This document shows, one piece after another, positions 9,146 through 62,903 of a stretch of 64,000 nt of DNA (within the stretch, counting starts at the first letter, position 1; every line of letters starts with the position of its first letter). The notes beneath the pieces are model-generated. The model was not told the DNA's origin, made no database searches, and saw only the letters and a program-made list of their open reading frames with translations. The translations under genes and the position numbers were made by a program. Location of the stretch: the NCBI RefSeq assembly GCF_003044035.1, contig NZ_NVQC01000023.1, forward strand, positions 77,301 through 141,300, in the 5' to 3' direction. The stretch comes from Candidatus Methylomirabilis limnetica (GTDB lineage Bacteria; Methylomirabilota; Methylomirabilia; Methylomirabilales; Methylomirabilaceae).

Positions 9146-9216
9146 GTAACTACTCAGGTGTTTAGGCTGTAGGCTGAAGGCTGTTAGCCGCTGCGCATAG
9201 ACCGAATCAAGGCGCC
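9146..9216. repeat. MITE-like element, truncated copy (left TIR plus part of subtype-B core)
   Basis: gtaactactcaggtgtttaggctgtaggctgaaggctgttag followed by gcgcatagaccgaatcaaggcgc, matching the 37337 and 36024 copies. Confidence 0.6.
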
Positions 9217-12625: not shown

Positions 12626-12762
12626 GTAACTACTCAGGTAGATAGGCTGAAGGCTGAAGGCTTTTAGGGGTGAGTAATGCGCGATCAAAGAAAACTCAGA
12701 AAAGGTCTTGAATGGCTCGATTCGTGCCTTGCGAGATAATTTATAACCTTCAGCTCAGTTAC
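12626..12762. repeat. MITE-like element (subtype A core, right TIR degenerate)
   Basis: gtaactactcaggtagataggctgaaggctgaaggc ... ggtcttgaatggctcgattcgtgccttgcgagataatttataaccttcagc. Confidence 0.7.
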
Positions 12763-12880: not shown

Positions 12881-12944
12881 AAAAACATACCACATTTTAT
12901 TTAATGATTTCCCGCCTATCACTGAATGGTTACTTCTTTACGTT

Positions 12945-13072
12945 CATTTTCGTTGAGGGTCGATACCCTGCGGCTTGCCGCGAGTTCGTCATACCGGCGG
13001 AAGCCGGTATCCAACAGGGCCGACTGGATTCCCGCATATCCAGTACGGGGCAGGCTTGTCAAGCACGGAATG
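12945..13072. repeat. REP-2 structured repeat (multi-hairpin, reverse orientation)
   Basis: ggtcgataccctgcggcttgccgcgagttcgtcataccggcggaagccggtatcc...gtcaagcacggaatgac. Contains the 8-bp stem ataccggc-GGAA-gccggtat. Confidence 0.65.
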
Positions 13073-13168
13073 ACAATCAAAAGAAAAGGACATCTGGCGC
13101 ACTATCCTCGTTTGTCCGTAGGCAGGAACGCAGCACACCTGCCGCATAGGAGGCGCAAGTTCTGTAGC

Positions 13169-17107: not shown

Positions 17108-17165
17108 AGAAACCAGCTTTCAGCTATCAGCAGCCAGCAATGCACGACTCCGCAGCAAGCTGCGG

Positions 17166-17346
17166 GGTTTCATCTTCTGTTCTGGCCCGTCATTCCGTAC
17201 TTGACACGCCTGCCCCGTACTTGATACGGCCTGCCCCGTACTCGATACGGGGGGGGAATCCAGCCGGGCCCTCTGGATACCGGCTTCTGCCGGTATGACG
17301 AACTTACGGCAAGCCGCAGGGAATGAACCCCCAGTGGATTCAAGAA
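17166..17346. repeat. REP-2 structured repeat (forward orientation, with duplicated gcctgccccgtacttgatacgg module)
   Basis: gtcattccgtacttgacacg...ggataccggcttctgccggtatgacgaact...gggaatgaacccccagtggattcaag. Confidence 0.65.
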
Positions 17347-19494: not shown

Positions 19495-19724
19495 GCGATA
19501 CCCTCATTGCTCAAACATTGATTGGTATATCTCTTAATTGCGATTTTTTATAGTATACCCCCAGACGACGCTGTCAAGAAAAATGTTATCTACAAGTTAA
19601 ATATGCTACCCCATAAGGTATTAACCAACATCCATGCCATGAGCAAAATCAGCCCAATCAAATTAGGACACTACCGAGGGCCTGAAGTAGGCCGCCGCGA
19701 AGCCTGATGTCCCGACGCGAAAGC

Positions 19725-19925
19725 TACATCCGTTCGGGAGCGGAGACGCCAAGCAACCCAAGCGTGTTGGCCATGACCACGCGAAGGGCGGCCACAAGCG
19801 CCAGGCGTGCATGCGCGAGATTCCTATCGGCGGAGATAATCCGATGGCGGGTATATGGTAGCCGTGAAACTGCGCGGCGAGGTCGTGCAGATAGATGGTG
19901 AGCCTGTGCGGCTCCAGCACCTCTG
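19725..19925 (-). pseudogene. displaced and decayed copy of the argS 3' end (last ~66 codons), frameshifted
   Basis: About 88% nucleotide identity to 28041-28240 (the true argS 3' end), starting exactly at the stop codon. A 2-bp insertion near 19853-19856 breaks the frame. Confidence 0.8.
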
Positions 19926-19933
19926 CAATTCGG

Positions 19934-22477
19934 CTAGACCGGTGAATTGAGCAGCTTCTTTAGATCATCTCGCCAGTCACGATCCGCGTATTCTCCCTCG
20001 TCCAGGACTTGAAAGCGGAATGTCTCGTCCCGGAAGTCTTCCGCGAGTTTCTGCCAGGGGACTTTCTGGCCAACTTTTTGAAAGTAGCTGCCCACCGTCC
20101 GCTTGTAGGTTGTGTCTTCGTTTCCTTTGAGATGCTTGCCCTTGCTTTCGACCACAACCACAGAGGCAACCGGCTTTTTATTGTGACCCTGTTGAACCAC
20201 GAAATCCGGATAAATCTTATTCCGCTTGTAGCCTTGGATCGAGAAACAATCCACACCAACGAGATTTCGATACCACCACAGGACTTCGGGATGCTTGTCG
20301 AGATACAGTGCGACCGACTTCTCGTACTCATTGAGGTCGTCCGGCACGTAATCAAAGAGGGACCGTTGGACCGGCTCGTGATCGACATGTATCAGCTTCT
20401 TTGTTCCCCGTATCTCAATCTTGGGTGGAATTTCAAAGCGCCCTTCCACACATTCAAGATAGAAGCCGAGCCGTTTGTTTTTGAACAGCGCCTCGAACGC
20501 TTCTTGCGTTTGACGGTCCGTCCCACGCTGGATCAATCCGACAATCTTTTCACGCACCTCAAACTTAACCAGTCCCAACCGGCCTGAAAGCTCCGGGGTG
20601 AGCTGATACAGACGATCAGTCACCCGACTGACGATCTCCCGTAGCTGCTTCTGGCTGAAGTAATTAAACGGCAGGCTGGCTACCAACCAGGCCTTCACCT
20701 GCTCATCAGTCTCCAGGGTAACAGATTCGCGTTCCGCCACACGCTCAAGATCATCTTGTTCAAGGGTCAGGCGATAGATGGAATCCTTTGCCGCTTCGAT
20801 CGCTGCCGTCATGTTCCAATCTATTCCGGCGTAATCGAACCGTGTGACATCGACCTGACTGAGCAAATGCCGGAAATAGTCGAGGACATCGTACGTGTCT
20901 CCGTGCTTGACGCAAAAGCGGGGCAGATAAATCTTACCCTCGAACTCCCGATAGTAACGGCGGAATTCTTCACGAATAGTAGTCACGCGCTTCTGTCCGG
21001 CTTTGCCGTCGTCCGTACTGCGGTCAACGACGCTGGCCGCGTCGCCTTCGTAGCCCTCCTGTTCCAGCGCCTTCTTGACCTCACGAGAAATATCCGCCGC
21101 CTTTCGCCGCAAACAAAACACATAGCTCTCGTTCAGCTCGTCGAACGGCGTCCTCTCCACATACGGCTGCCGAAGCACCCGCCCTACCAGTTGGGTCATA
21201 CTCTGCTGGCTGCCGGTGTTGTTCAGGGAGACCAGGATATAGGCGAAGGGGCAATCCCATCCCTCCTGCAAGGCTGCCTTGGTGATAATCCATTCCACGC
21301 GGCATCCTTCGGCGAGGAGATCAATGCCCTCAATATCGTCAGTGTCCGAGGTCTTGATGGCGATGGCCGATTCATGGACACCCTCTCTCTGCATCAGATG
21401 TTGCTTCACGTCTTCGCTGTGGACGAAGCCGCTGTCCCGCTGGTCCTTCCCTGTCCGTTCGACTTGGACCAGCACGATCGGGCGAATGAGTTTCTCGCTT
21501 TCCCTGTAATGCTTCTCCGCGAGTTTCGCTAAGTGCTCTCTCTTTTCTCGCGCCTGCGTCAGGCAATTCTTCCAAGACGGCTGGTTGGCGTTGGCGATGT
21601 TGATCGGCAACTTGATCATCTGTTCACCAAGCAGTTCTTTGCCGGTTACCCGAACGAGGACGTTGGCTTCCTTATGTGGCGTGGCGGACAGTTCGACCAC
21701 CACTGAGGCATTGAATCCCTCAATGGTCTTCCGAGCGAGCTCGCTGGTGGCCTTGTGTCCTTCGTCCAAGATGACCGGCGGCTCGCAGAGACGGACCAAG
21801 TTGCCTAGCGAGGTTTTGACCAACCTCTCGTCCTGGTCGTCGTCATCCCCCAGCATGTCTAGGTTCAGGAACTGAACCTTGAGCGCCCCGTGCTTTTCTG
21901 GATCATTTTCGGGCGGGAAATGCTGGACGATGTTGCCCCCGCTATCGCGGAAGAACTTGAGCTGCTCGCGCGTCTCGCGGTTGGTACTGGCGAGTTTCAG
22001 GAGTAGGATATTTAGGTTGCTGCGTAACTGCCCCGGCGTCAGGCGAAAAATCTCGTGCTTTTCCCACACCTCAATACGGCGTGACAGCACGAACTCCAAT
22101 GATTCGCGATAGAAGTGCCTACGGTCGCGAAGCGCCTTGAGCGTGTCCTTGTATATCTGATCGCTGGGAACCACCCACAACACCAACCCAGAGCCGTTGC
22201 GGTTCTTCAGAATAGTTTGATAGACAAGCCCAAGAATCTGAGTAGCCAGTAAAGTCTTCCCGCCGCCGGTGGGTACCTTGATGCAACACGTAGGGAGGTC
22301 TTTTCCTAGACCGTTCTTGCGTGGTCGATACTCGCCGGGCAGATGAAACAGTTTCTTCGCTTTATCCCAAGCAGCCAAGGATGCGTACTGACTCCCGGCC
22401 GTTTGCTCCGAAGCCAACGCGTCCAGAAAGAGTTTAACTTCGCTTATGACGCGTTCCTGATAACGCTTCAGTTGCAT
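19934..22477 (-). CDS. res: Type III restriction endonuclease Res subunit (SF2 helicase + nuclease)
   Basis: Walker A VPTGGGKT and DEGH box. 847 aa. Lies immediately downstream of mod. Confidence 0.85.
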   Translation of the reverse strand: MQLKRYQERVISEVKLFLDALASEQTAGSQYASLAAWDKAKKLFHLPGEYRPRKNGLGKDLPTCCIKVPTGGGKTLLATQILGLVYQTILKNRNGSGLVLWVVPSDQIYKDTLKALRDRRHFYRESLEFVLSRRIEVWEKHEIFRLTPGQLRSNLNILLLKLASTNRETREQLKFFRDSGGNIVQHFPPENDPEKHGALKVQFLNLDMLGDDDDQDERLVKTSLGNLVRLCEPPVILDEGHKATSELARKTIEGFNASVVVELSATPHKEANVLVRVTGKELLGEQMIKLPINIANANQPSWKNCLTQAREKREHLAKLAEKHYRESEKLIRPIVLVQVERTGKDQRDSGFVHSEDVKQHLMQREGVHESAIAIKTSDTDDIEGIDLLAEGCRVEWIITKAALQEGWDCPFAYILVSLNNTGSQQSMTQLVGRVLRQPYVERTPFDELNESYVFCLRRKAADISREVKKALEQEGYEGDAASVVDRSTDDGKAGQKRVTTIREEFRRYYREFEGKIYLPRFCVKHGDTYDVLDYFRHLLSQVDVTRFDYAGIDWNMTAAIEAAKDSIYRLTLEQDDLERVAERESVTLETDEQVKAWLVASLPFNYFSQKQLREIVSRVTDRLYQLTPELSGRLGLVKFEVREKIVGLIQRGTDRQTQEAFEALFKNKRLGFYLECVEGRFEIPPKIEIRGTKKLIHVDHEPVQRSLFDYVPDDLNEYEKSVALYLDKHPEVLWWYRNLVGVDCFSIQGYKRNKIYPDFVVQQGHNKKPVASVVVVESKGKHLKGNEDTTYKRTVGSYFQKVGQKVPWQKLAEDFRDETFRFQVLDEGEYADRDWRDDLKKLLNSPV

Positions 22478-28039: not shown

Positions 28040-29713
28040 CTACATCCGTTCGGGAGCGGAGACGCCCAGCAACCCAAGCGCGTTGGCCATGACCACGCGA
28101 AGGGCAGCCACCAGCGCCAGGCGAGCGCGCGTGAGATTCCTATCGGCGGAGATAATGCGATGGCGGGTATAGTAGCCATGAAACTGCGCGGCGAGGTCGT
28201 GCAGATAGGTGGTGAGTCTGTGCGGCTCCAGCGCCTGCGCCGCCCCGATCACCAGTTCCGGGTAGAGCGCCAGTTGCTTAATCAACCCGATCTCTTCCTG
28301 CAGATCGAGCGACTCGAGGGCATCCTCTGGGGTGGGAGCTGGAAACTGAGCCTTTGCCGCCTGCCGGAGAATGCTGCACAGGCGTGTGTGCGCGTACTGC
28401 ACGTAGTAGACGGGGTTTTCCTCGGACGCCGACTTGGCGAGCTCCAGGTCAAAGTCCAAATGGCTGTCGCACCGTCTGGTGAGAAAGATGAAGCGCGCCG
28501 CATCACGGCCCACCTCCTCAACCAGCTCGTCCATCATCACGAACTGCCCGGATCGCTTGGACATCCGGACCTGCTCGGTCCCTCGCATTAAACGGACGAG
28601 CTGCACGATCAGGACCCTGAACGCCTCGGGAGGATGGTCGAGCGCCTGCATTGCAGCCCGCATCCGCGCAATGTAGCCATGGTGGTCCGGGCCCCAGAGA
28701 TCGATCACCTGGTCAAACCCGCGAGCGAACTTGTCCTGGTGATAGGCGATGTCCGGAAGAAAATAAGTGATATCGCCGTCGCCCTTCACAAGGACCCGGT
28801 CTTTATCATCGCCAAAGGCGGTCGAGCGAAACCACAGGGCGCTCTCATGCTCATAGAGGAAGCCGCGCTCCCGCAGCGCCTCCATCACCCGCTCTGGCTC
28901 GCGGCGTTCCCGCAGGGCCCGCTCGCTAAACCACCCATCAAAGGTGACCCCGTATGCCTCAAGCGAGGCCCGCTGCCAGCGGAGGATCCGCTCGACCGCA
29001 AAGCGACCCAGTCGATCGCGGCGCTCCGGCTCCGGCGCTAAGAGCGCCTCGGGCCCGTGCTGCTCCAGAAACTCGCGGGCCAGATCGATCAGATAGTCAC
29101 CCGGATAGGCCTCCTCTGGCATGGGGCAGTCCTCACCCAGGCGCTGACGGCACCGCACCTCCATCGCCAACGCGAGGTTGCGGAATTGGTTCCCCGCATC
29201 GTTCACATAGTACTCGCGGTACGGCCGATGCCCGATGGCCTCTAAGAGCCTAGCGATGGCATCACCGATCGCCGCGGCCCTGGCACTGACCACGACGAGC
29301 GGGCCGGTCGGATTCGCGCTGACAAACTCCACGAGTACGCGGCGCCCGCCGCCGACATCAGCCCTGCCGTACGTCGATCCAGCTCGGAGGATCTCCTGAA
29401 CGAGATGACGCCAGAACGGCCTGGCGATAAAGAAGTTCAGATAGCCGGCGCCCGCCACCTCGACGCGATCGACCAGATCGGAAGGAAATGTTGCTGAGGC
29501 GGCAATCTGGAGCGCGATCTCGCGAGGCTTCTGCCTCAGCGCTTTCGCCAGGCCGAAGGCCAGCGTGGTAGAGAGATCGCCGAAGGCCTGGTCGCTCGGA
29601 TATTCCCACGTAAGCTGTGCGGGAGCATCCTGCGCAAGCCCGCTCTCTAAACCAGCCTGCTTGATGGCGGTCAGAAGCGATTTCGTCAGGTTTGTTTTGA
29701 GAGCACTAATCAT
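28040..29713 (-). CDS. argS: arginine--tRNA ligase
   Basis: 557 aa, class I aaRS with KMSKS-like MSKRSG. Anticodon-binding C-terminus ends in ...APERM. Confidence 0.9.
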   Translation of the reverse strand: MISALKTNLTKSLLTAIKQAGLESGLAQDAPAQLTWEYPSDQAFGDLSTTLAFGLAKALRQKPREIALQIAASATFPSDLVDRVEVAGAGYLNFFIARPFWRHLVQEILRAGSTYGRADVGGGRRVLVEFVSANPTGPLVVVSARAAAIGDAIARLLEAIGHRPYREYYVNDAGNQFRNLALAMEVRCRQRLGEDCPMPEEAYPGDYLIDLAREFLEQHGPEALLAPEPERRDRLGRFAVERILRWQRASLEAYGVTFDGWFSERALRERREPERVMEALRERGFLYEHESALWFRSTAFGDDKDRVLVKGDGDITYFLPDIAYHQDKFARGFDQVIDLWGPDHHGYIARMRAAMQALDHPPEAFRVLIVQLVRLMRGTEQVRMSKRSGQFVMMDELVEEVGRDAARFIFLTRRCDSHLDFDLELAKSASEENPVYYVQYAHTRLCSILRQAAKAQFPAPTPEDALESLDLQEEIGLIKQLALYPELVIGAAQALEPHRLTTYLHDLAAQFHGYYTRHRIISADRNLTRARLALVAALRVVMANALGLLGVSAPERM

Positions 29714-33132: not shown

Positions 33133-33272
33133 GTAACTACAGGTAGATAGACTGAAGGCTGAAGGCTGTTAGTGGTAGGAACCGAGAAGGTCTTGAACGG
33201 CTCGATTCGTGTCTTGCGAGATATTTATAACCTTCAGTCTTCAGCCTTCAGCCTAAACACCTGGGTAGTTAC
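33133..33272. repeat. MITE-like element, complete (subtype A)
   Basis: Left TIR gtaactacaggtagatagactgaaggctgaaggct. Right TIR agccttcagcctaaacacctgggtagttac. Confidence 0.75.
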
Positions 33273-34187: not shown

Positions 34188-34204
34188 TGTAATGTCCCCT
34201 GAGT

Positions 34205-34346
34205 CTCTTTGCTTTGATTGTCATTCCGGGCTTGATAAGCCTGCCCCGTACTTGATACGGGGGGAATCCAGTCGGGCCCTATGGATACCGGCTTCCGCCG
34301 GTATGACGAACTCGCGGCAAGCCTCGGGGAATGAACCCCCAGTGGA
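34205..34346. repeat. REP-2 structured repeat fused to a MITE remnant
   Basis: gtcattccgggcttgataagcc...ggataccggcttccgccggtatgacgaactcgcggcaagcc...gaacccccagtggattcaaga. Confidence 0.65.
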
Positions 34347-34433
34347 TTCAAGATCTTTCTGAAGTTTTGCGTGATCACGCATGACTTACACCTAACAGCC
34401 TTCAGTCTTCAGCCTATCTACCCGAGTAGTTAC
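34347..34433. repeat. MITE-like element, internal region plus right TIR only (left half replaced by REP-2)
   Basis: tctttctgaagttttgcgtgatcacgcatgacttacacctaacagccttcagtcttcagcctatctacccgagtagttac. Confidence 0.7.
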
Positions 34434-36003: not shown

Positions 36004-36023
36004 AGCGGCTATCCTATCATCCC

Positions 36024-36189
36024 GTAACTACTCAGGTAGATAGACTGTAGGCTTTTAGACTGTAGGAACGCACCATGCGAGACCATACCAAGCCGAGAGC
36101 GCGTGAACTGGCCGACGAAGCGCCCTGATTCGGTCCGTGCGCAACTACTAACAGCCTTCAGCCTACAGCCTAAACACCTGAGTAGTTGC
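36024..36189. repeat. MITE-like element, complete (subtype B core, encodes MRDHTKPRARELADEAP on +)
   Basis: gtaactactcaggtagatagactgtaggc ... gcctacagcctaaacacctgagtagttgc. Core is the reverse complement of the 37337 copy. Confidence 0.75.
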
Positions 36190-36199
36190 CTCATCCCCA

Positions 36200-37314: not shown

Positions 37315-37336
37315 TGTGCCGGTTGTCTCTGGACGC

Positions 37337-37504
37337 GTAACTACTCAGGTGTTTAGGCTGTAGGCTGAAGGCTGTTAGTCTTTGCGCATGGACCGAATCA
37401 AGGCGCACTTCGTCGGCCAGTTCAAACGCTCTGAGCTTGGCATGGTCTCGCATGGCGCGTTCCTACAGTCTAAAAGCCTACAGTCTATCTACCTGAGTAG
37501 TTAC
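37337..37504. repeat. MITE-like element, complete (subtype B, inverted relative to 36024)
   Basis: gtaactactcaggtgtttaggctgtaggctgaaggctgttag...ctacagtctatctacctgagtagttac. Confidence 0.75.
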
Positions 37505-37732
37505 TTGGGCGCAATAATACTTGACAGGCTCAGGAAGAGTGACTAGATTGAGCCGGTTTTGCTGAACTCCATACCCTGCGTGCTCCATGCTATCACACGA
37601 ACATGCCTGTGAGAGCGAAGGTCTTCATTGCGCCCGCCAACTTGACGAAATACGCTGACCGGGATAGCATCCTAACAGGCGTGCTGGCGCCAAGGTGACC
37701 AACGAGCCTCGCTGATCCGAGCATACTGTACC

Positions 37733-39685: not shown

Positions 39686-39701
39686 AAGTAAGCGTTCAGC
39701 A

Positions 39702-39878
39702 GTAACTACTCAGCAGTAACTACTCAGGTGTTTAGGCTGAAGGCTGAAGACTGAAGGCTCTGCATTATCTCGCAAGGCACGAATCGAGCCATTCAAGATC
39801 TTTTCGGAGTTTTGTATGATCACGCATGACTTACTTCTAAAAGCCTTCAGCCTTCAGCCTATCTACCTGAGTAGTTAC
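39702..39878. repeat. MITE-like element, complete (subtype A), with 14-bp tandem duplication of the left tip
   Basis: agtaactactcagc agtaactactcaggtgtttaggctgaaggctgaagactgaaggc...ccttcagccttcagcctatctacctgagtagttac. Confidence 0.75.
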
Positions 39879-40040
39879 GTTCAGCAGTCAGCCGTCAGCT
39901 TTCAGCAACAACAAGGAAAGAACGAAAATGGCCGACCATTTCCAAATCAAAAGCTTGGACCTCTGTGGTTAGTTTGCCTCATCTTGCTGACGGCTGAGCG
40001 CTGACCGCTGAATGCTATTTTCTGAGGAGCAGAACACGCT

Positions 40041-40701: not shown

Positions 40702-41385
40702 ATGTTTGTGCTGATCGCCGGCGGAGGCCGAACTGCTTCACACCTGGCCACCCTCTTGCTGGCTCGCCAGCACGAGGTCCGACTTATCGAGCACCGACGG
40801 GACGTCCTCTCACGTCTTCACCACGAGTTGCCCACCGAGGTGATCTACGAAGGCAACCCCACCGATCCACAAGTATTGGAACGGGCCGATATCCGTCGGG
40901 CGAAGGTGTTAGCTGCGTGCACCTCTTCCGATGAAGATAATCTCTCGCTCTGCTTCTTTGCCCGCACCCTCTATCGGGTGCCCCGTACTATCGGCTGGAT
41001 CAACAATCCCCGCACCGCTTGGCTCTTCGACGAGAAGTTCCACGTAGACGTGGCCCTCAACCAGGCGCAGATCTTTAGCAGTCTGATCGAAGAAGAGATG
41101 TCGCTCGGCGATATGATGACACTGCTCAAATTGCGGAGGGGCCGCTATTCCCTGGTAGAGGAGAAGATCCCCCCGGGCGCCCGCGCTCTGGGTATCGCTA
41201 TCAAGGACCTGCGCTTGCCGCCGGATTCGGTGATCGCCACCATCATCCGGGACGGGCAGCTCCTCATTCCGCGCGGGGATACCCGATTTGAAGTTGGGGA
41301 TGAGGTGCTCGCGATTGCAGATCATGAAGGCACCGAAGAGCTCGCCGGCCTGTTCGGCCGACCGGATGCGCAACAGAAGACGTAA
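40702..41385 (+). CDS. trkA: second TrkA/KtrA-type RCK protein
   Basis: MFVLIAGGGRTASHLA Rossmann. Tandem with the first copy, 1-nt spacing. Confidence 0.8.
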   Translation: MFVLIAGGGRTASHLATLLLARQHEVRLIEHRRDVLSRLHHELPTEVIYEGNPTDPQVLERADIRRAKVLAACTSSDEDNLSLCFFARTLYRVPRTIGWINNPRTAWLFDEKFHVDVALNQAQIFSSLIEEEMSLGDMMTLLKLRRGRYSLVEEKIPPGARALGIAIKDLRLPPDSVIATIIRDGQLLIPRGDTRFEVGDEVLAIADHEGTEELAGLFGRPDAQQKT

Positions 41386-41435
41386 CTACTTAGGCGTTTA
41401 GACTGAAGGCTGAAGACTGAAGGTTATACATTCAA
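41383..41435. repeat. MITE left TIR only (opens a 1.1-kb low-GC insert)
   Basis: gtaactacttaggcgtttagactgaaggctgaagactgaaggtt, then unrelated low-GC sequence. Confidence 0.65.
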
Positions 41436-41691
41436 ACGATAGTTGCTCTGAAGTATCAGCCTCAACATACGGCCCTTCGTTTTTCGACTTAAAGGCCATC
41501 GTTTCATAGTAACGCCCACCTGCGCCAATAGTGTCTAGTGCCTCCTTACTGCGGAACGCACCAACCGTCGAGACAACAATCCCTTCCTTTCCGTTTTCCA
41601 GTAGAGTGTTGCGCCTAAACATGCAGCGAGACGCACAAATAAAGTGTCCTGCCCACCCTCTTTCAGTTCTCTTTACCATTGTGTCCTCCAA
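41398..41691 (-). CDS. hypothetical protein (low-GC cassette ORF)
   Basis: 97-aa ORF in a 48%-GC segment. No motif recognised. Confidence 0.3.
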   Translation of the reverse strand: MEDTMVKRTERGWAGHFICASRCMFRRNTLLENGKEGIVVSTVGAFRSKEALDTIGAGGRYYETMAFKSKNEGPYVEADTSEQLSFECITFSLQPSV

Positions 41692-41746
41692 TCGCGCCCT
41701 CGTGTACAGGCGTCTCCATCACCTCACCCCCGCTCTCAGTAGCCCC

Positions 41747-42094
41747 TTACTCCCTCCCCCAACACTCCCCCAATTCTCCTCCCACACCACCCCCCTCCAA
41801 CACCCAGCTAAGCTCTATCACCGCCTGCTCCGCCCGTATACAATTCTCACCAGCAGCTCTGCCCTCGCGTAGCTCGTGATCAAATCTTTCTCGATACCAG
41901 GCGAGTCGTGCGCGTATCTCCTGCTCAGTTCTCAGAGCCAAAAGCCGTTTGAAAGTGTAGATGAGAAGTGATATGAAAAATATGAGTAACCAATACTCGT
42001 CTACCCAGCGTCCCAACCACGTGTCAAAAACGTATTCCCTTAAGAAGAACTCAATAGCTTGAGTGCCAGCGTAAATAGCCTCAATGATGGTCAT
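41747..42094 (-). CDS. hypothetical small membrane protein (low-GC cassette ORF)
   Basis: 115 aa with one hydrophobic helix (YWLLIFFISLLIYTF). Confidence 0.3.
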   Translation of the reverse strand: MTIIEAIYAGTQAIEFFLREYVFDTWLGRWVDEYWLLIFFISLLIYTFKRLLALRTEQEIRARLAWYRERFDHELREGRAAGENCIRAEQAVIELSWVLEGGGVGGELGECWGRE

Positions 42095-42261
42095 GGCGTC
42101 ACCTCACCCCCGCTTTCACTAACCATCGCCCACGCTTAACCTGCGTCACCCCTCGTGCCTGCCGCGCCTGTAGCTGCTTGAGTGATAGCGCCATAGCATG
42201 AGCCTCACATAAGCTCGCAAGACGCGAATCAAGTCAATGAACTACCCCGCAGCAAGCTGCT

Positions 42262-42385
42262 TCGGTATCGTCTTCTGTTCTGGCCCGTCATTCCGTGCTT
42301 GACACGGAATCCAGCCGGGCCCTCTGGATACCGGCTTCCACCGGTATGACGAACTCGCGGCAAGCCGCGGGGAATGAACCCCAGT
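42262..42385. repeat. REP-2 structured repeat fused to a MITE remnant
   Basis: cttctgttctggcccgtcattccgtgcttgacacggaatccagccgggccctctggataccggcttccaccggtatgacgaactcgcggcaagccgcgggg. Confidence 0.65.
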
Positions 42386-42477
42386 AGATTCAAGACCTTC
42401 TCGGTAACTCTTCTTTCGGAAACCCTGTGATTACCCCTAACAGCCTTCAGCCTTCAGCCTATCTACCTTGTAGTTAA
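42386..42477. repeat. MITE internal remnant plus right TIR (closes the low-GC insert)
   Basis: ...ccctgtgattacccctaacagccttcagccttcagcctatctaccttgtagttaac. Confidence 0.65.
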
Positions 42478-43250
42478 CAGCCCAGTCGATCGAGGAAGGC
42501 TTCAATGCCTCGGTTCACCTCGTCCGGCTGCTCCATCATGACCATGTGGCTGGCAGCGGGAACGAGTTGAAGCTGCGATCCGTTGATCTGGCTATGCAGA
42601 TACTCGGCGTATTTGGGTGGCGTCACCAGGTCGTCGGTCCCGCAGATCACAAGCGCTGGAATGGAGACCGCCTTCACCTGCTCCATGAGATCAAAGGCAT
42701 CGCACGCCAGAAGGTCTCCCTCGATCACTGGGATCGAGATGCGCAGCATAGCGTCGGCATCCTGCTTCAGCACCTCCGCCGGGGTGCCTGGCGCGTGCAC
42801 CAATTTGATTATCAGATCGACCGCTCGCCCTGCGTCGTCTCGAAGTCCCGCGAGGATCTGCGGCTGCACCCGCAGCCTTACTCCGCTCCCTACCAGCACA
42901 ATCGCCGCAAGCAGCTCAGGGTAGGCCAAGGCAATACTCTGGGTAATCGCCCCGCCCATCGAGTGGCCCACCATGACGATTCGATCAAGACCCAAGGCCG
43001 CGATACACCCCTTGACGATGTCGCGGTAGGCCTCGATCCGATCGGCTCCGCTCCCGTTCGAATCGCCATGCCCAGGGAGGTCCACGGCGATGGCCTTCCG
43101 CCGCCGTCCCAACGACTTGAGCTGCTGGAGCCACACCTGATGGCTCCCACCCGCCCCGTGGATGAAGACGATCGGTGACAGATGGCTCGCCAGACTTGGA
43201 CCTTGTTCAACGAAGTGGATACGAGTGCGCCCAACCTGTACGTACGGCAC
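42474..43250 (-). CDS. alpha/beta-hydrolase
   Basis: GHSMGG nucleophile elbow. 258 aa. Confidence 0.7.
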   Translation of the reverse strand: MPYVQVGRTRIHFVEQGPSLASHLSPIVFIHGAGGSHQVWLQQLKSLGRRRKAIAVDLPGHGDSNGSGADRIEAYRDIVKGCIAALGLDRIVMVGHSMGGAITQSIALAYPELLAAIVLVGSGVRLRVQPQILAGLRDDAGRAVDLIIKLVHAPGTPAEVLKQDADAMLRISIPVIEGDLLACDAFDLMEQVKAVSIPALVICGTDDLVTPPKYAEYLHSQINGSQLQLVPAASHMVMMEQPDEVNRGIEAFLDRLGC

Positions 43251-52405: not shown

Positions 52406-53755
52406 TCAGGTGGTGCATTTTGCCGAGGAGACGGGCCTTGGAAGCAGCCAAAACAAGAGCAGGGTCCCTATCACCGCGGACAATGCCGACCCAGACAGAA
52501 TCCCCACCTTGGCGGCGTTGAGCAATACGCCCTCCAACGCCAAGCCTGCGATGAATAGCGCCATGGTGAAGCCGATACCTGCCAGTATGCCGCCCGCTGT
52601 AAGTATGCTCCAGTTCACACCCTCAGGCAGCTTGGCAATGCCCAAGCGCACCGCCAGCCAACTAAAACTTACAATGCCTACAGGCTTGCCGACTCCTAGG
52701 CCTACCATGACCGCCACCGCAACGGGTTCACGAAAGTCCGTGAGGTTGATCGATACCCCAGCATTTGCCAACGCAAAGAGGGGCATGATCACAAAGCTCA
52801 CCCACGGGTGCAGTGCGGTCTCAAGCCGTTCAAGGGGGGACAAAATCTCTCGTGCCGCCACCTGGATATCACGCAACGCCGCGTGGTTCTTCCCCTCATT
52901 ACTCCAGCGTTCCCCTTCAACATACGCAGTAAACTGCTGGACGATCGCGTGCAGGCGGCCCGCACTGACCCACACATGGGCCGGCGTGAGCAGACCCAAG
53001 ATCACGCCGGCAATCGTGGCATGGACCCCGGATGCATGGAACGCCAACCAGATCACCGTCCCAACGATGCAATAGATCGGGACACTGCGCACCCCAAGGC
53101 GGGCCAGTCCTCTCACGACACCAAGACCCAGCAAGCCCAAGAAAAGCGCAGCGAGGTTGATGTGGCTTGTATAGCCGATAGCGATGACGAGGATGGCGCC
53201 GACGTCGTCAGCGATCGCCAGCGAAAGGAGGACAATACGCAAGCCCTGCGGGACCCGTGTCCCCAAGACCGCCAGACAACCAACGACAAAAGCGATGTCG
53301 GTCGCCATGGGAATACCCCAGCCGCGCTCGCCGGGCTGTCCGAGTTGGCCCGCGAGATAGAGAGTAGCCGGTACGACCATGCCGCCCGCCGCTGCAATGA
53401 TGGGGAGCGCGGCCGTTCGCATGTCCCTGAGTTCCCCGAGTACTAATTCGCGTTTGACTTCTAAGCCAACCACGAAAAAGAAAATCGCCATGAGACCGTC
53501 GTTGATCCAATGCCTTAAAGAGTGGTTCATCTCAAACGTACCAAACGTGAGACCGAATGGAGTCTTCCACAGGCCCAGAAATGCATTTGCCAAAGGTGAG
53601 TTGGCGAGAGCGAGCGCAAGACATGTAGCAAAAAGCAGGAGAAACCCACTGGCTGCCTCGATACGCAAAAAGCGCGCGAGCGGCTCGATGATGCGATCGA
53701 CCGGTTTCGCGGGCAGGCGAGCCAGGTCGTTGGAGTGTTGAGGTTGTTGCAACAT
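52406..53755 (-). CDS. nhaA: Na+/H+ antiporter NhaA
   Basis: NhaA fold (LAIADDVGAIL, VGLLAGIGFTM). Start set to the MLQQP ATG at 53755. The ORF extends 39 codons further upstream without a clear RBS. Confidence 0.75.
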   Translation of the reverse strand: MLQQPQHSNDLARLPAKPVDRIIEPLARFLRIEAASGFLLLFATCLALALANSPLANAFLGLWKTPFGLTFGTFEMNHSLRHWINDGLMAIFFFVVGLEVKRELVLGELRDMRTAALPIIAAAGGMVVPATLYLAGQLGQPGERGWGIPMATDIAFVVGCLAVLGTRVPQGLRIVLLSLAIADDVGAILVIAIGYTSHINLAALFLGLLGLGVVRGLARLGVRSVPIYCIVGTVIWLAFHASGVHATIAGVILGLLTPAHVWVSAGRLHAIVQQFTAYVEGERWSNEGKNHAALRDIQVAAREILSPLERLETALHPWVSFVIMPLFALANAGVSINLTDFREPVAVAVMVGLGVGKPVGIVSFSWLAVRLGIAKLPEGVNWSILTAGGILAGIGFTMALFIAGLALEGVLLNAAKVGILSGSALSAVIGTLLLFWLLPRPVSSAKCTT

Positions 53756-54013
53756 ACTGCGGCACCCAATTCTGACAAGGTCTCTGCCGGTAGAGTCGAA
53801 GAAGGGTGCGGTGGTCTTAGGAACGGGGAATCGCTGTTGTCGGAAGCCTTCGCTGCTGTACCGGCGCCTCAATCCGTCCCATCACTCCGTCTCCCGACTC
53901 TGCTCATCGAACCGGACGTGCGGATTTACCGCATCCGGCTCTCCGACTGGTATTACACACCAGGACCCACGCAGGCGGCGTCACCCGTGGCGCTCCTAGC
54001 GTGGGGATACGCA

Positions 54014-54436: not shown

Positions 54437-54594
54437 CCCAAGCCCTCCTTTGCGCCGTCCAACGTTGACCTAACGGGCGTACAAAAGCCGAGGGAAGCGT
54501 CGCTATTGCACGTCCGTGTTGAGCGAATTGTTAAGCTGCTTGCCGTTGAAGTAGGAAACTCGGAACTCGTCCACGATTCTCTCAAACGCGCTCC

Positions 54595-54879
54595 CTACTC
54601 GACGTCGCGGTAGGAATTCTCACTCCCCCAGACATTGGGAACTTTTGGGGCAAAAGGGTCGTTCCACCACTCCTTGCCGTCTACGAAGAATTTGTACTCA
54701 TATCGACCAGGCTCTAAGGATAGTGAGATGATCCAGACCGTCTGGAGGCCGTCGTAGACCATCGGGTGATCCGACACATTCCAGCCGTTGAAATCCCCTG
54801 CCAGGGTCACCGACTGGGCTCCAGGGCAGTGGAAGCTGAAGCTTACGACCTTTCCCATCGCGAATCCTCCCAGCCCCAC
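54595..54879 (-). CDS. stand-alone CBM48 / AMPK-beta-type glycogen-binding mini-protein (copy 1)
   Basis: 94 aa. VTLAGDFNGWN...PGRYEYKFFVDGKEWWNDP is the CBM48 glycogen-binding signature. Confidence 0.55.
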   Translation of the reverse strand: MGLGGFAMGKVVSFSFHCPGAQSVTLAGDFNGWNVSDHPMVYDGLQTVWIISLSLEPGRYEYKFFVDGKEWWNDPFAPKVPNVWGSENSYRDVE

Positions 54880-54962
54880 TTCTCGTATAAGCCGTCTGAA
54901 GTGTCTATCCGGATTCCATCGGTCATGATCCGGCCGACCAGGGCGGCGATGAAATATATCGC

Positions 54963-55922
54963 TTATTTAGCTACAGATCCTGATGACTGATCGCCTACCC
55001 CCTTGCTCTCCTTGCTCTCCCTGCTCCCTCTGCTCTCCCTGCTCTCCCTGCTCCCCTTGATCTCCCTACTCTCCTGCGGCCCACCTACGCCAATAAACGG
55101 CACAGCCCCAGCGCCTGTAACCTGGGGAAGTATGCCATTCCATTTGTCTATAGCCCGGAGATTGGCCTCTATCTTTCTCAGTTCTATCAGGTCCGGTGAA
55201 ATATTTGCTTTCTGCAGCCTCAGGGACTCTGCCTCTGCCCTGGCTGCTGTAATCGTCTGCTCTGCCTCTACCTTTATCCTGTCCAGGTCTCTCTTTGCCT
55301 TCAGTGCAAGCTGTTCTGCTGTCTGCTTTGCCTCAATAGCCTCAGTAAATACTCGTGAGAAGCTGAATGTGACAATAGAAAACGCATCCACTACTATGTT
55401 ATACGCTAGGAGTCTTTCTGAAAGGGCTGCTCTTATTGCCTCGCTTACCGCTGGCCTCTTTGTGATAAGCTCTTCCGCTGTGTATTTGGCCGACACCGCC
55501 TTCATTACCTCTTGTATTGCAGGGTCTATAATACGCACCTTGAACTGAACTCCAAGCGTTTGATAGACAACATTTGCCTTCTCAGGTAGGATATGATAGT
55601 TAAGCGCAACCGACAAAGTCACATCCTGAAGATCAGCCGATGCAGATGCGGCATCAGTCACTGCCTTCTGAACCTTGACATCCATTGGGATAACGCTTTG
55701 CATTATAGGCACCCTGAAATGCAGTCCTTCTCCAAGCACAATCTCTTGAACAGCGCCAAAATTAAGGACAACCCCTCTTTCACCTGCACCAATCTGAACC
55801 CATGGATGTAAAATCATAAAACCGACCAGAATTGCTGCAAACATCAGCGCTAGCATCACAGGGCCTTTCATCAGTACAGACTGCACTGCCTTCTTGGCCA
55901 TGAAGATCTCTCTCTCATCCAT
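54963..55922 (-). CDS. SPFH/band-7 (prohibitin/HflC-like) protein with a C-terminal SRE(S/G) low-complexity tail
   Basis: N-terminal TM then GERGVVLNFGAV...HFRVPIMQSV SPFH core. C-terminus ...KGSRESRESRGSRESKESKG. Confidence 0.8.
   Translation of the reverse strand: MDEREIFMAKKAVQSVLMKGPVMLALMFAAILVGFMILHPWVQIGAGERGVVLNFGAVQEIVLGEGLHFRVPIMQSVIPMDVKVQKAVTDAASASADLQDVTLSVALNYHILPEKANVVYQTLGVQFKVRIIDPAIQEVMKAVSAKYTAEELITKRPAVSEAIRAALSERLLAYNIVVDAFSIVTFSFSRVFTEAIEAKQTAEQLALKAKRDLDRIKVEAEQTITAARAEAESLRLQKANISPDLIELRKIEANLRAIDKWNGILPQVTGAGAVPFIGVGGPQESREIKGSRESRESRGSRESKESKGVGDQSSGSVAK
55000..55072. repeat. 9-nt tandem repeat (agggagagc/ctccctgct, about 7 units) encoding the SRES tail of the SPFH protein
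   Basis: cttgctctccttgctctccctgctccctctgctctccctgctctccctgctcc. Confidence 0.6.
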
Positions 55923-56507: not shown

Positions 56508-56855
56508 CTCCTTTCTCTTGAGCTATCCCAGGATACAGGTGTTGCGCTAGAAACTTGAACTCAGGTTAAAAAAAAGCCGCCTCCGCCTCTCGCGGATGGC
56601 GGCCCGACCACCCTCTGTCCTCCGAAAATAGCTAGACGCTATCTCCGGACCCCTCTGGAATAACCTGTCACAACGTTATGTCCTAAGAAGTCATTTTGAT
56701 GATCGGCGACAACCTCACAACACCCTACGAAGAGACCATTCGATGCGAACATGCGACCTCAGCAGGCGTCAGCTTCAGATGTGTCGACGCGTTACACTAA
56801 CGCTCACTATAGCCCTAAATCGAGTGCAGTCAAGGTCAATCAGGCTCTGTGCCCC

Positions 56856-57140
56856 CTACTCGATATCGAGGTATGAATTCTCACTCCCCCAGACATTGGG
56901 AACTTTTGGTGCGGAGGGGTCGTTCCACCACACCCGACCATCCACGAAGAACTTGTACTCGTATCGGCCAGGCTCTAACGGAAGCGCGACGGTCCATACC
57001 TCCTGGATGCCGTCATAGACCATCGGGTGGGCCGACACATTCCAGCCGTTGAAATCCCCCGCCAGGATGACCGACCCGGCTCCAGGACAGCGAAAGCTGA
57101 AGCTGGCAATCCTTCCCATAGCCAATCCCTCTGTCATCAA
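56856..57140 (-). CDS. stand-alone CBM48 glycogen-binding mini-protein (copy 2, paralogue of 54595-54879)
   Basis: 94 aa, about 80% identical to copy 1 (VILAGDFNGWN...PGRYEYKFFVDGRVWWNDP). Confidence 0.55.
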   Translation of the reverse strand: MMTEGLAMGRIASFSFRCPGAGSVILAGDFNGWNVSAHPMVYDGIQEVWTVALPLEPGRYEYKFFVDGRVWWNDPSAPKVPNVWGSENSYLDIE

Positions 57141-57570
57141 TGCTCATGTAGCGCGCCCAAGGTTTCTGCGCGGAGCTAATTCATGCTGAGCTCATCAGTG
57201 ATGAAATTACACAATGGATCGCAAATAGGCAAGTTCTTTATGCCTGGAACGTACCGCGCGATTCCCTGGAGAGCTCGCAGGTCTTAACGGCTACTCTGGT
57301 TAATCTGAAACGTCTGAACTGCACAGCATGGGAGGTGGGATGGCGAAGGCATACTGCAGCGGATGTGGGATCACACCGGTAGATCCTTCAGCGTCGCTAC
57401 CAGCGCCCGTGGTGACTGGTCGACTCCGGCCAGCACCGTAATCTGGGCGCACGACACGTACTGCTTGGGAATTCAACTGGACCTCGGTCCCTCTGGTGAG
57501 GGCTCCAGTCGGTTAATCCTTTCGGTTACAGAACTGCCTCCTCGACAGAAAGGTGTGGTAGAATACAACC

Positions 57571-58247: not shown

Positions 58248-58401
58248 GTAACTGCTCAGGTAGATAGACTGAAGGCTGAAGGCTTTTAGGGGTAAGCCGC
58301 GTGATTATTTAAAACCCCGAGAAGGTCTTGAGGGGCTCGATTCGTGTCTTATGAGATAATTTAGAGCCTTCAGCCTTCAGCCTAAACACCTGAGTAGTTA
58401 C
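58248..58401. repeat. MITE-like element, complete (subtype A, same orientation as 12626)
   Basis: gtaactgctcaggtagatagactgaaggctgaaggc...gccttcagccttcagcctaaacacctgagtagttac. Confidence 0.75.
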
Positions 58402-60504: not shown

Positions 60505-60575
60505 GGCAATCCAGAGAGGCGCTGGATTCCCCCGTATCAAGTACGTGGCAGGCTTGTCAAGCCCGGAATGACACC
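60505..60575. repeat. REP-2 structured repeat, partial copy
   Basis: ggattcccccgtatcaagtacgtggcaggcttgtcaagcccggaatgac. Confidence 0.5.
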
Positions 60576-60729
60576 CAAGCACAGAGATACAAAGTTGTCA
60601 TTGCGAACGAGGTGAAGCAATCTCGCAGATTGCCACGCACCCTGCTGGTGCTCGCAATGACAGAAAGAAGCTAGTGATTGTGCAGTCTATCGCTGTTCTT
60701 GGGTAACAAACTGTCTGCTGTTCGCCGCA

Positions 60730-62055
60730 TCACGACACCGTTTGATTCTTCGCGAAGAGGATATAGGACCTTGCTCGGCCCTCACGGATGGCCTGCTCGA
60801 CCAGGGCCCGAGGCTCCTTCGCCTTGACTCTTGGCAGGATCGCCTCGAAGAACTGGATGTAGAAATCGTCTGGCACCACGACTACGGAGGCACGCATTGT
60901 GAGCCCCGCCCGGTCGATGGTTCTCGCGTAGCGAACAGTACGGCTTTTACCGGACGCAATCCTGGTGTCAAAGAGTTCTTGTGTCAGATCAAGCGTGACC
61001 TCTCGCCCGATCCGTTCCTCTTGCACACTCTCATTCACCTGCTTACCATCCGTATCTACTAACTCCCATCGGACTATGATCTTCGGCGTAACGTAGGTTG
61101 GGACATGATGCCCAACCCCGGTATTAGCCAGCGTGATTTCAGCCTGAACTTGCTCGCCGACCTGGTAGCGCTCCTTATTTACCGAAAGACGGACGGATAC
61201 GCCTTGCTTGACCATCTCAGGATCATGGATCCCCCGCCATAGATGCCGCCGCTCCGGCATATGGCAGCCCTGACAGGTCATCCCTCCCAGCGCATACGGC
61301 CCCTCTTTCCATTCATTATAGGTGTTTTCGAGCAGCTTACCGTTCAGGGCAGACCCACTCGGCTCGAACTGGTGGCACCCTTTGCAGAACTCGGATCGCT
61401 CAAAGGCCGCCGTCCTGATGGCGCCGGCGTGGGGGAGCTGTGCTACCGGAGCGGAATTCTCAATCGAGCCGTCCCGCTTTGGCGGCCCGAAGCGCTGGTG
61501 CTTCCGAACATGGCACCCGGCACAGGTCAGACCCTTTTGCTGCAGCGAGGCCGAAAAGGCGCGGTTCGTTTTGAACTTCAACGCGGTGCTGCCCCAGACC
61601 CCTGACGCGCTCGGCAATGGCGTCGCAACGGCGCGGCGCTTCTTGAACAGAGAGGGGGAACCACCGCCTTTCTTCACGACCTTCTCCTGCTGCTCGGTGA
61701 GAGGAGCATGACAACTGTAGCAGAGGATCGCCATATTGGGATCACCATGGATAAACTCCATCGTCTGGCCTATCACGCCCGGCCCCATACTTTTACTGTG
61801 GAGGCTGCTGCTCCAATCCTCGTACTGAGTTCGATGGCAGACGGCGCAACTTTCCGGGTCAAGAGATGCCTCTATCGACGAGAAATGGGCGGGCGGCTTA
61901 CCTTGAGGCGGGATGGGCGTCTGCCAATGGCGCGTGAGAAACTCAAGCTGCGCGTCGTCATCGGCAGCGGGTGGCGGGTCTTTCATCGCCCATGCGCCAA
62001 CCGAAAGCCCCAGGCCTGCGATCACGACAGCGGTATACAGAAGAAGCCGTTTCAT
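60730..62055 (-). CDS. pentaheme c-type cytochrome (secreted)
   Basis: Five CxxCH: CAVCH, CYSCH, CAGCH, CKGCH, CQGCH. Signal peptide MKRLLLYTAVVIAGLGLSVGAWA. Start set at 62055 because the upstream in-frame 77 codons are the translated REP-2 repeat. Confidence 0.75.
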   Translation of the reverse strand: MKRLLLYTAVVIAGLGLSVGAWAMKDPPPAADDDAQLEFLTRHWQTPIPPQGKPPAHFSSIEASLDPESCAVCHRTQYEDWSSSLHSKSMGPGVIGQTMEFIHGDPNMAILCYSCHAPLTEQQEKVVKKGGGSPSLFKKRRAVATPLPSASGVWGSTALKFKTNRAFSASLQQKGLTCAGCHVRKHQRFGPPKRDGSIENSAPVAQLPHAGAIRTAAFERSEFCKGCHQFEPSGSALNGKLLENTYNEWKEGPYALGGMTCQGCHMPERRHLWRGIHDPEMVKQGVSVRLSVNKERYQVGEQVQAEITLANTGVGHHVPTYVTPKIIVRWELVDTDGKQVNESVQEERIGREVTLDLTQELFDTRIASGKSRTVRYARTIDRAGLTMRASVVVVPDDFYIQFFEAILPRVKAKEPRALVEQAIREGRARSYILFAKNQTVS

Positions 62056-62065
62056 TCTCGTCGAG

Positions 62066-62893: not shown

Positions 62894-62903
62894 AGTTCAT
62901 AAG

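Follow-up and report, generated by a model that had tools for sequence, protein, structure and literature searches.

What are the repeats that crowd the intergenic gaps of a 64-kb stretch of DNA (the window) from Candidatus Methylomirabilis limnetica, a methane-oxidising bacterium of the phylum NC10, where do they come from, and what moves them? According to our analysis, they are very probably recently mobile, non-autonomous DNA transposons (MITEs, miniature transposable elements with inverted repeats) of this species, namely deletion derivatives of a cassette that bears a single gene of the 23S_rRNA_IVP family (PF05635, here IVP), moved in trans. MITEs and passenger-carrying cassettes are already known as kinds of element; what is new here is the cargo, the ends built of a tip plus heptamers, the spread across phyla, and the link to the intervening sequences (IVSs) of rRNA genes and to an element of the ISL3 family of insertion sequences (ISs). 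An intact cassette, L132:2949-3395, is used throughout as the alignment reference.

Repeat family in the window and traces of transposition

The family is recognised by a tip of 14 nt, GTAACTACTCAGGT, which, with up to two mismatches allowed, occurs 16 times on the two strands of the window, against 0.11 matches expected in shuffled sequence. A 17-nt probe for the adjoining heptamer array gives 23 matches versus 0.29 expected, all of them at tip loci and none elsewhere. The sequence-only reading had described an abundant MITE-like family of about 14 copies; the family is real, but the tips resolve into 10 insertions, namely six complete miniatures, one interrupted element and three truncated ones. 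A tip is present at each of the positions that it had given (9146, 12626, 33133, 34347/34433, 36024, 37337, 39702, 41382, 42386/42479, 58248 and 62903). Eight of the ten insertions are clustered within 9.4 kb (33.1 to 42.5 kb), where nearly all intergenic gaps are occupied by copies, and all copies of the window are intergenic, lying between protein genes, as had been claimed.

Each end consists of the almost invariant tip, four end-specific nucleotides and two to three inverted tandem heptamers, which read GGCTGAA, GACTGAA or GGCTGTA. The inverted arms (tip plus inverted heptamers) measure 35-50 nt and are 90-98% complementary. Terminal inverted repeats of 35 bp had been reported before; inverted arms do exist, but the two ends are not identical, the tip being followed by AGAT or GGAT at one end and by GTTT at the other. 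The subterminal tandem unit is 7 bp long and not the 10-bp GCTGAAGGCT proposed earlier, whose 20-mer has no match even at three mismatches. The window copies span 140-177 bp and hold gene remnants only, for example a fossil open reading frame (ORF) of 17 codons. The ten insertions are listed here, with the two ends of the interrupted element on separate lines.

9146 to 9215, minus strand: truncated copy, the last ~70 nt with the GTTT-type end, heptamers and a C-terminal gene remnant of the subtype-B lineage; 94% identical to 37337-37406, the similarity ending beyond 9215
12626 to 12762, plus strand: truncated subtype-A miniature with intact AGAT-type 5' end, reference positions 1-71 and 365-427; 3' heptamers and tip partly deleted (...CTTCAGC-TCAGTTAC); 95% identical to 62931-63058
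33133 to 33272, plus strand: complete miniature of 140 bp, reference positions 1-48 and 352-447, reading GTAACTACAGGTAGATAGACTGAAGGCTGAAGGCTG...CCTTCAGTCTTCAGCCTTCAGCCTAAACACCTGGGTAGTTAC; 5' tip 2 nt short (GTAACTACAGGT); found in all related strains examined; no recognisable target-site duplication; RNA fold -57.9 kcal/mol, z = -6.5
34347 to 34433, minus strand: 5' half only, reference positions 1-74, with the start-codon remnant MRDH... kept; joined at ATTCAAGA with one member (34203-34353) of an unrelated, second family of repeats
36024 to 36189, plus strand: complete subtype B of 166 bp, with a remnant ORF
37337 to 37504, minus strand: complete subtype B of 168 bp, 93% identical to the 36024 copy; RNA fold -82.7 kcal/mol, z = -7.0
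39702 to 39878, minus strand: complete subtype A, the element at 39716-39878 plus a 14-bp tandem duplication at 39702-39715; remnants N-terminal MRDHTKLRKD and C-terminal EKILNGSIRALRD; RNA fold -77.2 kcal/mol, z = -10
41382 to 41431, minus strand: 3' (GTTT-type) end of the interrupted element
42406 to 42479, minus strand: the other (5', AGAT-type) end of this element, covering 11-48 and 127-147 of the reference
58248 to 58401, plus strand: complete subtype A of 154 bp; RNA fold -72.9 kcal/mol, z = -8.2; flanks without a recognisable target-site duplication
62903 to 63058, minus strand: complete subtype A of 156 bp; identity to the 39741 and 12626 copies 93-95%; adjoins an IS21 IstB gene fragment; RNA fold -62.5 kcal/mol, z = -9.0; flanks without a recognisable target-site duplication

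Relatives of these elements were sought in a genome collection (one genome per species) with a 30-nt pattern of tip plus heptamers, which returned at least 120 loci. The hosts among the matches listed are Methylomirabilis, Nitrospirota, Desulfobacterota, Nitrospinota, an anammox planctomycete, Geobacter, Bacteroidales and Pseudomonadota, and nearly all of these matches are paired elements of 87-267 bp. A look for target-site duplications had been suggested along with the sequence-only reading, and they are found: among the matches listed, 78 paired copies in other genomes show an 8-bp duplication that is perfect in 36 and has one mismatch in 13 (49/78 in all), whereas the next 8 nt outward at the same 78 copies, taken as the control, are perfect in none and match with one mismatch in one. 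The targets are AT-rich, with the weakly symmetric preference nAnnnnTn. Such a duplication is the mark of a transposase cutting with an 8-bp stagger.

Within the window, 8-bp duplications are recognisable at three copies: 36024 (ATCATCCC at 36016-36023 and CTCATCCC at 36190-36197), 37337 (CTGGACGC at 37329-37336 and TTGGGCGC at 37505-37512) and 39702, where the duplication GTTCAGCA is perfect (39694-39701 and 39879-39886). For these same three copies, metagenome contigs 95-99.9% identical to the window hold the empty site with a single target copy. The 36024 copy is missing from five related contigs, which have a single ATCATCCC, the 37337 copy from three, with a single CTGGACGC, and the 39702 copy from the related contig L218. 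Contig L219, for its part, carries an additional copy, not in the window, at window position ~31836, which is of a third variant with TGFPKEEL codons. The insertion polymorphism goes both ways within one species-level lineage. Four copies, by contrast, are shared by all the related strains seen and thus fixed among them. The earlier suggestion of recent or ongoing mobilisation agrees with the duplications and with these empty sites in near-identical strains. A composite transposon of the 36024 and 37337 copies was considered and ruled out because each has its own target-site duplication. A 14-bp duplication of the tip had also been noticed; it is real at 39702-39715, but it is not of the tip alone, being a tandem TCAGCAGTAACTAC across the junction of flank and tip.

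The fallback offered by the sequence-only reading was an origin as repetitive extragenic palindromic (REP) sequences or bacterial interspersed mosaic elements (BIMEs), that is, REP/BIME- or REPIN-like palindromes spread by a tyrosine transposase of the RAYT type or by recombination. The copies are indeed intergenic, hairpin-forming, locally dense and without a transposase nearby, as the abundant intergenic hairpin repeats of the REP/BIME and REPIN-RAYT kind are. However, REP and REPIN sequences are GTAG-headed palindromes, make no target-site duplication and use a tyrosine HUH enzyme, and none of this applies here: the arms are neither self-palindromic nor short GTAG-headed palindromes, no RAYT-like gene was seen in the flanks, and the copies descend from a protein-coding cassette, as described below. 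The 8-bp duplications together with the empty and filled sites therefore exclude such an origin for practical purposes, and we put its probability close to nil.

The predicted RNA of each copy is a stem of 35-45 bp, with energies from -58 to -83 kcal/mol and z from -3.7 to -10. The copies might thus be kept as cis-regulatory RNA hairpins (RNase III sites, stabilisers or terminators), with their density at 33-42.5 kb reflecting selection rather than local hopping alone. This proposal is about what the copies do now and does not conflict with an origin from transposons. Apart from the very stable stems, it can draw on the filling of nearly every intergenic gap over 9.4 kb, on the four fixed copies, on the RNase III cleavage of the homologous rRNA IVS stem (PMC4990558) and on two genes whose stop codons are supplied by tips. 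The stop codons of the TrkA-like gene 40702-41385 (plus strand; stop at 41383-41385) and of the alpha/beta-hydrolase gene 42474-43250 (minus strand; stop at 42474-42476) both sit in the G-TAA-C of a tip, and the insertions have therefore re-terminated these genes at their 3' ends. Yet the stability of the stems follows automatically from the terminal inverted repeats and is therefore no evidence of function in itself, Rfam contains no family matching the elements, and three copies are polymorphic among strains without visible change in the neighbouring genes. We consider maintenance as regulatory hairpins unlikely.

The interrupted element is undivided in the related strain L216, where it measures ~310 bp, and represents a third deletion variant that retains TGFPKEEL codons (42406-42427). 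Its ends are parted in the window by a 785-bp insert (41431-42215) and by a repeat of the second family (~42230-42396). The insert, present in the window and not in L216, which is 95-97% identical, holds the ORFs 41531-41872 (plus strand) and 41747-42094 (minus strand), neither with a match in Pfam, and may be another mobile insertion.

Descent of the window copies from an IVP cassette

Two unrelated core subtypes had been distinguished among the copies. According to our alignments, both are deletion remnants of one gene of 118 aa, and a third deletion variant is also present. Both subtypes have an ATG ~51 nt inside the AGAT-type end, encoding MRDHTK(L/P)R. In subtype A, the codons for EKILNGSIRALRD stand directly before the GTTT-type end, while subtype B has MRDHTKPRARELADEAP followed by a stop codon and then LIRSVRN in another frame; remnants of FPKEE and EKVLNGLIRALRD are present as well. 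On the reference cassette, subtype A corresponds to positions 1-71 plus 363-447 and subtype B to ~1-98 plus ~385-447, that is, to another deletion in a more diverged parent. Since both cores keep parts of the IVP gene, they are not unrelated, and the short ORF earlier ascribed to subtype B, which is present at 36024 as MRDHTKPRARELADEAP, is a fossil of that gene. A longer relative, L082, retains more of it (...FELVNEVTMLVDSVIAGF.PKEE).

The gene is intact elsewhere. In a Nitrospira metagenome-assembled genome (MAG; L029), a tip at 2228 is followed by an intact ORF at 2279-2635, the product of which, MRDHTKLRAFELADEV...GFPKEE...SNIVEG...EKVLNGLIRALKGE, matches PF05635 (23S_rRNA_IVP) at 1.8e-33 and TIGR02436 (four helix bundle protein) at 5.6e-34, and is weakly similar to Avd, a protein of diversity-generating retroelements (DGRs). 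The predicted structure of IVP is a plain four-helix bundle with an Avd-like fold at ~11% sequence identity to Avd, and PADLOC gave no match for it. More than 7,900 protein clusters (90% identity) were found at E <= 1e-10, the best of them 85-93% identical, and most are on short contigs, as expected for repeats.

Intact cassettes with the same tips and duplications abound in metagenomes. Among 80 metagenome loci with intact close homologues, 15 have both tips, which in most of these lie 44-51 nt upstream of the start and ~40-50 nt downstream of the stop codon. The 15 cassettes measure 430-457 bp, with one of 479 bp, and seven show an 8-bp duplication with at most one mismatch, perfect in three cases (TTTTTATT, GAAAATTT and AAAATGAC). 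Both tips and the IVP gene are present in the reference cassette and in those of L163, L183 and L188, the last three having the perfect duplications. The cassettes have entered operons at short gaps, as between heptosyltransferase genes. Many other intact IVP genes have kept the heptamers and lost the outer tips. A comparison of 61 distinct intact ORFs gives a median dN/dS of 0.11 at a dS of 1.14, and the IVP protein is therefore under purifying selection. The 14-nt tip is nearly invariant across the ends compared, which is not independent evidence because the ends were chosen by their match to the tip.

The descent of the window copies from the IVP cassette is shown by the gene parts that they retain, the miniatures being internal-deletion derivatives of the single-gene cassette of 430-457 bp with the same ends. 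The ends themselves vary in the number and sequence of their heptamers. In some intact cassettes (L203:2890-3000 and the upstream region of L192) the array has grown to at least 15 units, (GGCTGAAG[G/A]C[C/T]GAAG)n, which points to replication slippage at the ends. A GTAAC-tipped sub-family combines GGTTCAA heptamers with a different IVP remnant, MKIERFEDIEAWQLARELARKI; an intact cassette of this sub-family, looked for with regard to co-variation between IVP and heptamers, was not found.

Candidates for the mobilising enzyme

As neither the cassette nor the miniatures encode a transposase, mobilisation must be in trans. The enzyme would be a DDE transposase recognising the 14-bp tips. The sequence-only reading had named no transposase, and none lies between any tip pair in the window and 221 further loci (~1.2 Mb, here the locus set).

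An autonomous element in which tip, heptamers, transposase, IVP gene, heptamers and tip follow one another exists in Nostoc. In Nostoc sp. KVJ3 (L239:1847-4404, 2,558 bp), a perfect 8-bp duplication, AAAATATG, encloses a tip, (GGCAGAG/GGCAGAA)n, an ISL3 family transposase (PF01610 and PF14690), the IVP gene directly downstream, an inverted array and a tip. The element is common to the plasmids gamma and alpha of Nostoc PCC 7120, the copy of pCC7120gamma being L231:1851-4416. Its inverted repeats of ~85 bp comprise a 24-nt tip of ISL3 type, GGTTCTTGGCAACTTTTGGTGATC, a spacer and four to five heptamers (GGCAGAG or GGCAGAA). Target-site duplications of 8 bp are a property of the ISL3 family in ISfinder, and one is seen directly in L239. 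Compared with the family of the window, whose tip contains GTAAC, the Nostoc IS has the same layout (apart from the transposase), the same length of duplication and heptamers that are one base apart, and because of this match we think that an ISL3-like enzyme is the best single candidate. It differs from the GTAAC family in its size of 2.56 kb, in encoding a DDE transposase, in its tip, which is unrelated to GTAACTACTCAGGT, and in belonging to another phylum.

Several points weigh against transposition in trans or against such an enzyme. No transposase was found between the tips of the locus set, and tblastn with eight ISL3 transposases at E <= 0.1 gave nothing in the same set. The GTAAC tip is unlike ISL3 ends: both the Nostoc IS and a second ISL3 element, with the tip GGTTCAGGGCCCATTTTGGTGAT, start with GG and contain TTTTGGTGAT. 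The proposed link to ISL3 comes from one cyanobacterial IS lineage, in a different phylum and with an IVP protein 42% identical to that of the GTAAC family. Moreover, four of the seven two-ended copies of the window have no recognisable duplication. The scans used exact patterns that included heptamers, so that a partner sharing the tips only would escape them, and MAG assemblies are usually broken at multicopy insertion sequences.

Other searches for a partner were of several kinds. When the ORFs of at least 150 aa from 120 loci were clustered all against all, only housekeeping families emerged, and tip pairs 600-5000 bp apart with matching flanks yielded nothing credible. The 68 unpaired tips inspected are nearly all MITEs with a variant other end. 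No cognate IS with the same ends was found in the locus set, and cassette or tip DNA had no match in plasmids, phages or viral contigs. Within the window, a truncated IS21 IstB gene (63419-63943) is the sole gene related to transposition. A candidate autonomous partner of 3.5 kb between two tips, L030, turned out to be two solo ends around PIN and HD genes, and the ISL3 candidates P0261 and P0258 from metagenomes have ordinary ISL3 ends, no IVP gene and no heptamers. At L005:1588-2172, a GTAAC-tipped element with GGTTCAC heptamers adjoins the truncated 3' end of a gene fragment that, by eye, may be like the N-terminus of an IS1182/IS5-type transposase, which suggests possibly nested mobile elements.

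To our knowledge, IS66 is the only family listed in ISfinder that has GTAA ends together with 8-bp duplications. The elements share with it the GTAA start of their ends and the 8-bp duplications, but the agreement with GTAAGCG, the usual end of IS66, stops after four bases, and none of tnpA, tnpB and tnpC was seen between any tip pair of the locus set. Overall, we regard an ISL3-like enzyme as a tentative choice, somewhat short of an even chance, give little credence to an IS66-like one, and put the odds that the enzyme is another one or is encoded by the host at about even.

With the IVP gene as the sole gene between the tips, it can also be asked whether the ~450-bp cassette is autonomous or semi-autonomous, with an IVP pentamer as part of the transposition machinery (for example by binding the heptamers, bringing the ends together and calling in a nuclease or polymerase of the host) and with the miniatures mobilised by cassette IVP. 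The dN/dS of 0.11 and the lack of any transposase in 1.2 Mb of surrounding DNA would fit this proposal, and so would the heptamers, which are found with IVP in all lineages examined, unlike the variable outer tips. Among characterised proteins, the closest in structure is Avd, a cofactor that handles nucleic acid and is essential to a mobile retroelement, and according to an old hypothesis the ORF of IVSs is a mobility component (quoted in PMC4990558). Against this, the model of IVP is a plain four-helix bundle without a match to a nuclease, integrase or transposase fold, the protein matched no defence or transposase family, and the Nostoc IVP gene travels with a canonical ISL3 DDE transposase. 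The many intact IVP genes that outlive the loss of the tips suggest a function other than mobility, and there is no intact IVP gene in the window, yet recent insertions in its lineage. We deem this role of IVP very unlikely and continue to favour an outside transposase acting on deletion derivatives of the cassette. A variant that we rate as speculative, and somewhat improbable, would be that IVP cassettes form a distinct, phylum-spanning semi-autonomous class and free-living relatives of IVSs, in which an Avd-like pentamer binds the inverted heptamers, as DNA or as an RNA stem, and is either required for mobilisation by an outside transposase or a regulator of it.

Heptamer arrays, rRNA intervening sequences and neighbouring features

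On plasmids of cyanobacteria and Azospirillum, nine distant IVP genes (including those of L222-L229) are flanked by lineage-specific heptamer arrays, the paired arrays being mutually inverted at most of the nine loci. Some of these arrays are given here.

AGTAGGG (7.9 units) and TCCCTAC (4.9 units)
AGGGAAC and CTGTTCC (7.4 units)
AGGGTGT and CTACACC
GAGGACG and GTCTTCT
AAAAGCT (15.6 units)

These distant IVP genes are wedged between cas6 and cas4, between the genes for the beta and alpha subunits of ribonucleotide reductase, and between parA and parB. The constant module is the heptamer arrays plus IVP, and the outer tips differ among lineages. All lineages examined have such arrays beside their IVP genes, though in differing sequence, from which we infer an accessory module, for binding or for structure, that belongs with the IVP protein. 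The plasmid arrays resemble the short tandemly repeated repetitive (STRR) heptamers of cyanobacteria, of which IVP cassettes might, in the speculative variant above, be a source; no literature linking STRR heptamers to IVP genes was found.

The IVS of the Coxiella 23S rRNA gene measures 428 nt and has a stem cleaved by RNase III, two to three tandem GACAGAT heptamers just upstream of its S23p ORF, and an ORF which decays by deletion and is thought not to be expressed (PMC4990558). The same 2016 study calls the origin of IVSs unclear and gives transposition as a hypothesis only (PMC4990558). The elements described here share with the 23S rRNA IVSs of Coxiella, Leptospira and Xanthomonas the PF05635 protein, the inverted-repeat stem, the heptamers before the ORF and the decay by deletion, and the Coxiella IVS is close in size to the intact cassettes (428 nt vs 430-457 bp). 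A transcribed copy would fold into a stem of ~35-45 bp of the type that RNase III removes from 23S rRNA IVSs. Unlike IVSs, the elements have 8-bp duplications, insertion polymorphism and an ORF under selection; no literature report of duplications or insertion polymorphism was found for IVSs. Conserved 23S or 16S motifs are absent from the 221 loci and no element lies in an rRNA gene there, so that the elements are by definition not IVSs. We think that they are probably free-living relatives of rRNA IVSs, and the cassettes may show where 23S rRNA intervening sequences come from.

With MITEs, the elements share a small size (below ~300 bp), inverted repeats, duplications, a multicopy state, the lack of a transposase and the formation of miniatures via internal deletion, and the intact cassette fits the definition of mobile insertion cassettes (MICs) such as MIC231 in having a passenger gene between IS-type ends, a duplication and no transposase. 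They differ from the known members of both kinds in that the passenger is always the same Avd-like gene, under purifying selection, and in that the ends consist of a 14-nt tip plus tandem heptamers, with the tip occurring in many phyla. IVP shares its fold with the DGR accessory protein Avd, but its neighbours here are housekeeping genes, and no reverse transcriptase was seen beside the IVP genes, template and variable repeats not having been specifically searched for. Chunjie, a MITE known from Geobacter uraniireducens, is, by its description (PMC3184786), similar in its deltaproteobacterial lineage, its insertion within operons and its stable hairpins, and is set apart by terminal inverted repeats of 21 bp and direct repeats of 9 bp versus 8 bp here. 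Full-text searches of the literature for the tip sequence returned unrelated primer matches only, and searches for IVP, S23p or four-helix-bundle genes as mobile-element cargo returned no description of this element. Scattered IVP genes had been noted in earlier papers, without an explanation, both in cas loci and among the rRNA insertions of bacteria of the candidate phyla radiation (CPR).

These results offer a concrete, testable origin for 23S rRNA IVSs and their S23p/IVP ORF, as the same gene and layout occur in a live transposon. They also give a context to the orphan family PF05635, with its more than 7,900 close clusters, as cargo of mobile cassettes, and it is because of this that IVP genes are found wedged inside operons and cas loci. 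Since NC10, Desulfobacterota, Nitrospirota and anammox bacteria have the tip in common, an enzyme that mobilises it must be widespread, and bacteria of sediment and groundwater must often exchange such DNA horizontally. In practical terms, the elements break metagenome assemblies and are usable as strain markers for Methylomirabilis.

Three proteins encoded in the window are identical to ones of Candidatus Methylomirabilis limnetica (PTL35526.1, PTL35510.1 and PTL35507.1). The genes flanking the window copies are housekeeping genes, coding for Nramp, an H+-pyrophosphatase, a squalene/phytoene synthase, a PpsR kinase and a GNAT acetyltransferase, and further for a thioesterase, a permease, two TrkA proteins and hydrolases. 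The second repeat family, unrelated and GC-rich, occurs at 12943-13091, 17133-17345, 34203-34353, 42230-42396, 60522-60585 and 62051-62215. Its modules form small hairpins (GTCATTCCG..CTTGA.ACG, CCTGCCCCGTACTTGATACGG and GGAATCCAGCCGGGCCC..CCGGCTTCCGCCGGTATGACG), and from its sequence it looks REP/BIME-like. Two of its copies lie at the same position (ATTCAAGA) within the core of the MITE family.

Other features of the window concern different genes. An nhaA-I RNA match (RF03057) is found at 56594-56652 on the minus strand, with 46.3 bits versus a gathering score of 37, and an NhaA antiporter gene at 52406-53872 (minus strand). A direct repeat of 300 nt, with 81% identity, occupies 54590-54889 and 56851-57150, 2.26 kb apart, and 9-bp tandem repeats (CTCCCTGCT-like) are located at 54999-55070, near the 3' end of the Band_7/SPFH gene 54963-55922 (minus strand). 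The sequences 19724-19922 and 28040-28236 are ~200-nt duplicates with 93% identity; one comprises the 3'-terminal part of the gene for arginyl-tRNA synthetase (28040-29713, minus strand) and the other lies downstream of the gene 19934-22477, which looks like a gene-fragment duplication. Finally, the last MITE of the window is flanked by a truncated AhpC/TSA-like ORF at 62558-62893 (minus strand), in which no more than the first ~37 domain positions are left, and by the IS21 IstB fragment (63419-63943, minus strand), which begins at profile position 83, and the two fragments suggest that the window ends in a patch that is rearranged and rich in ISs.

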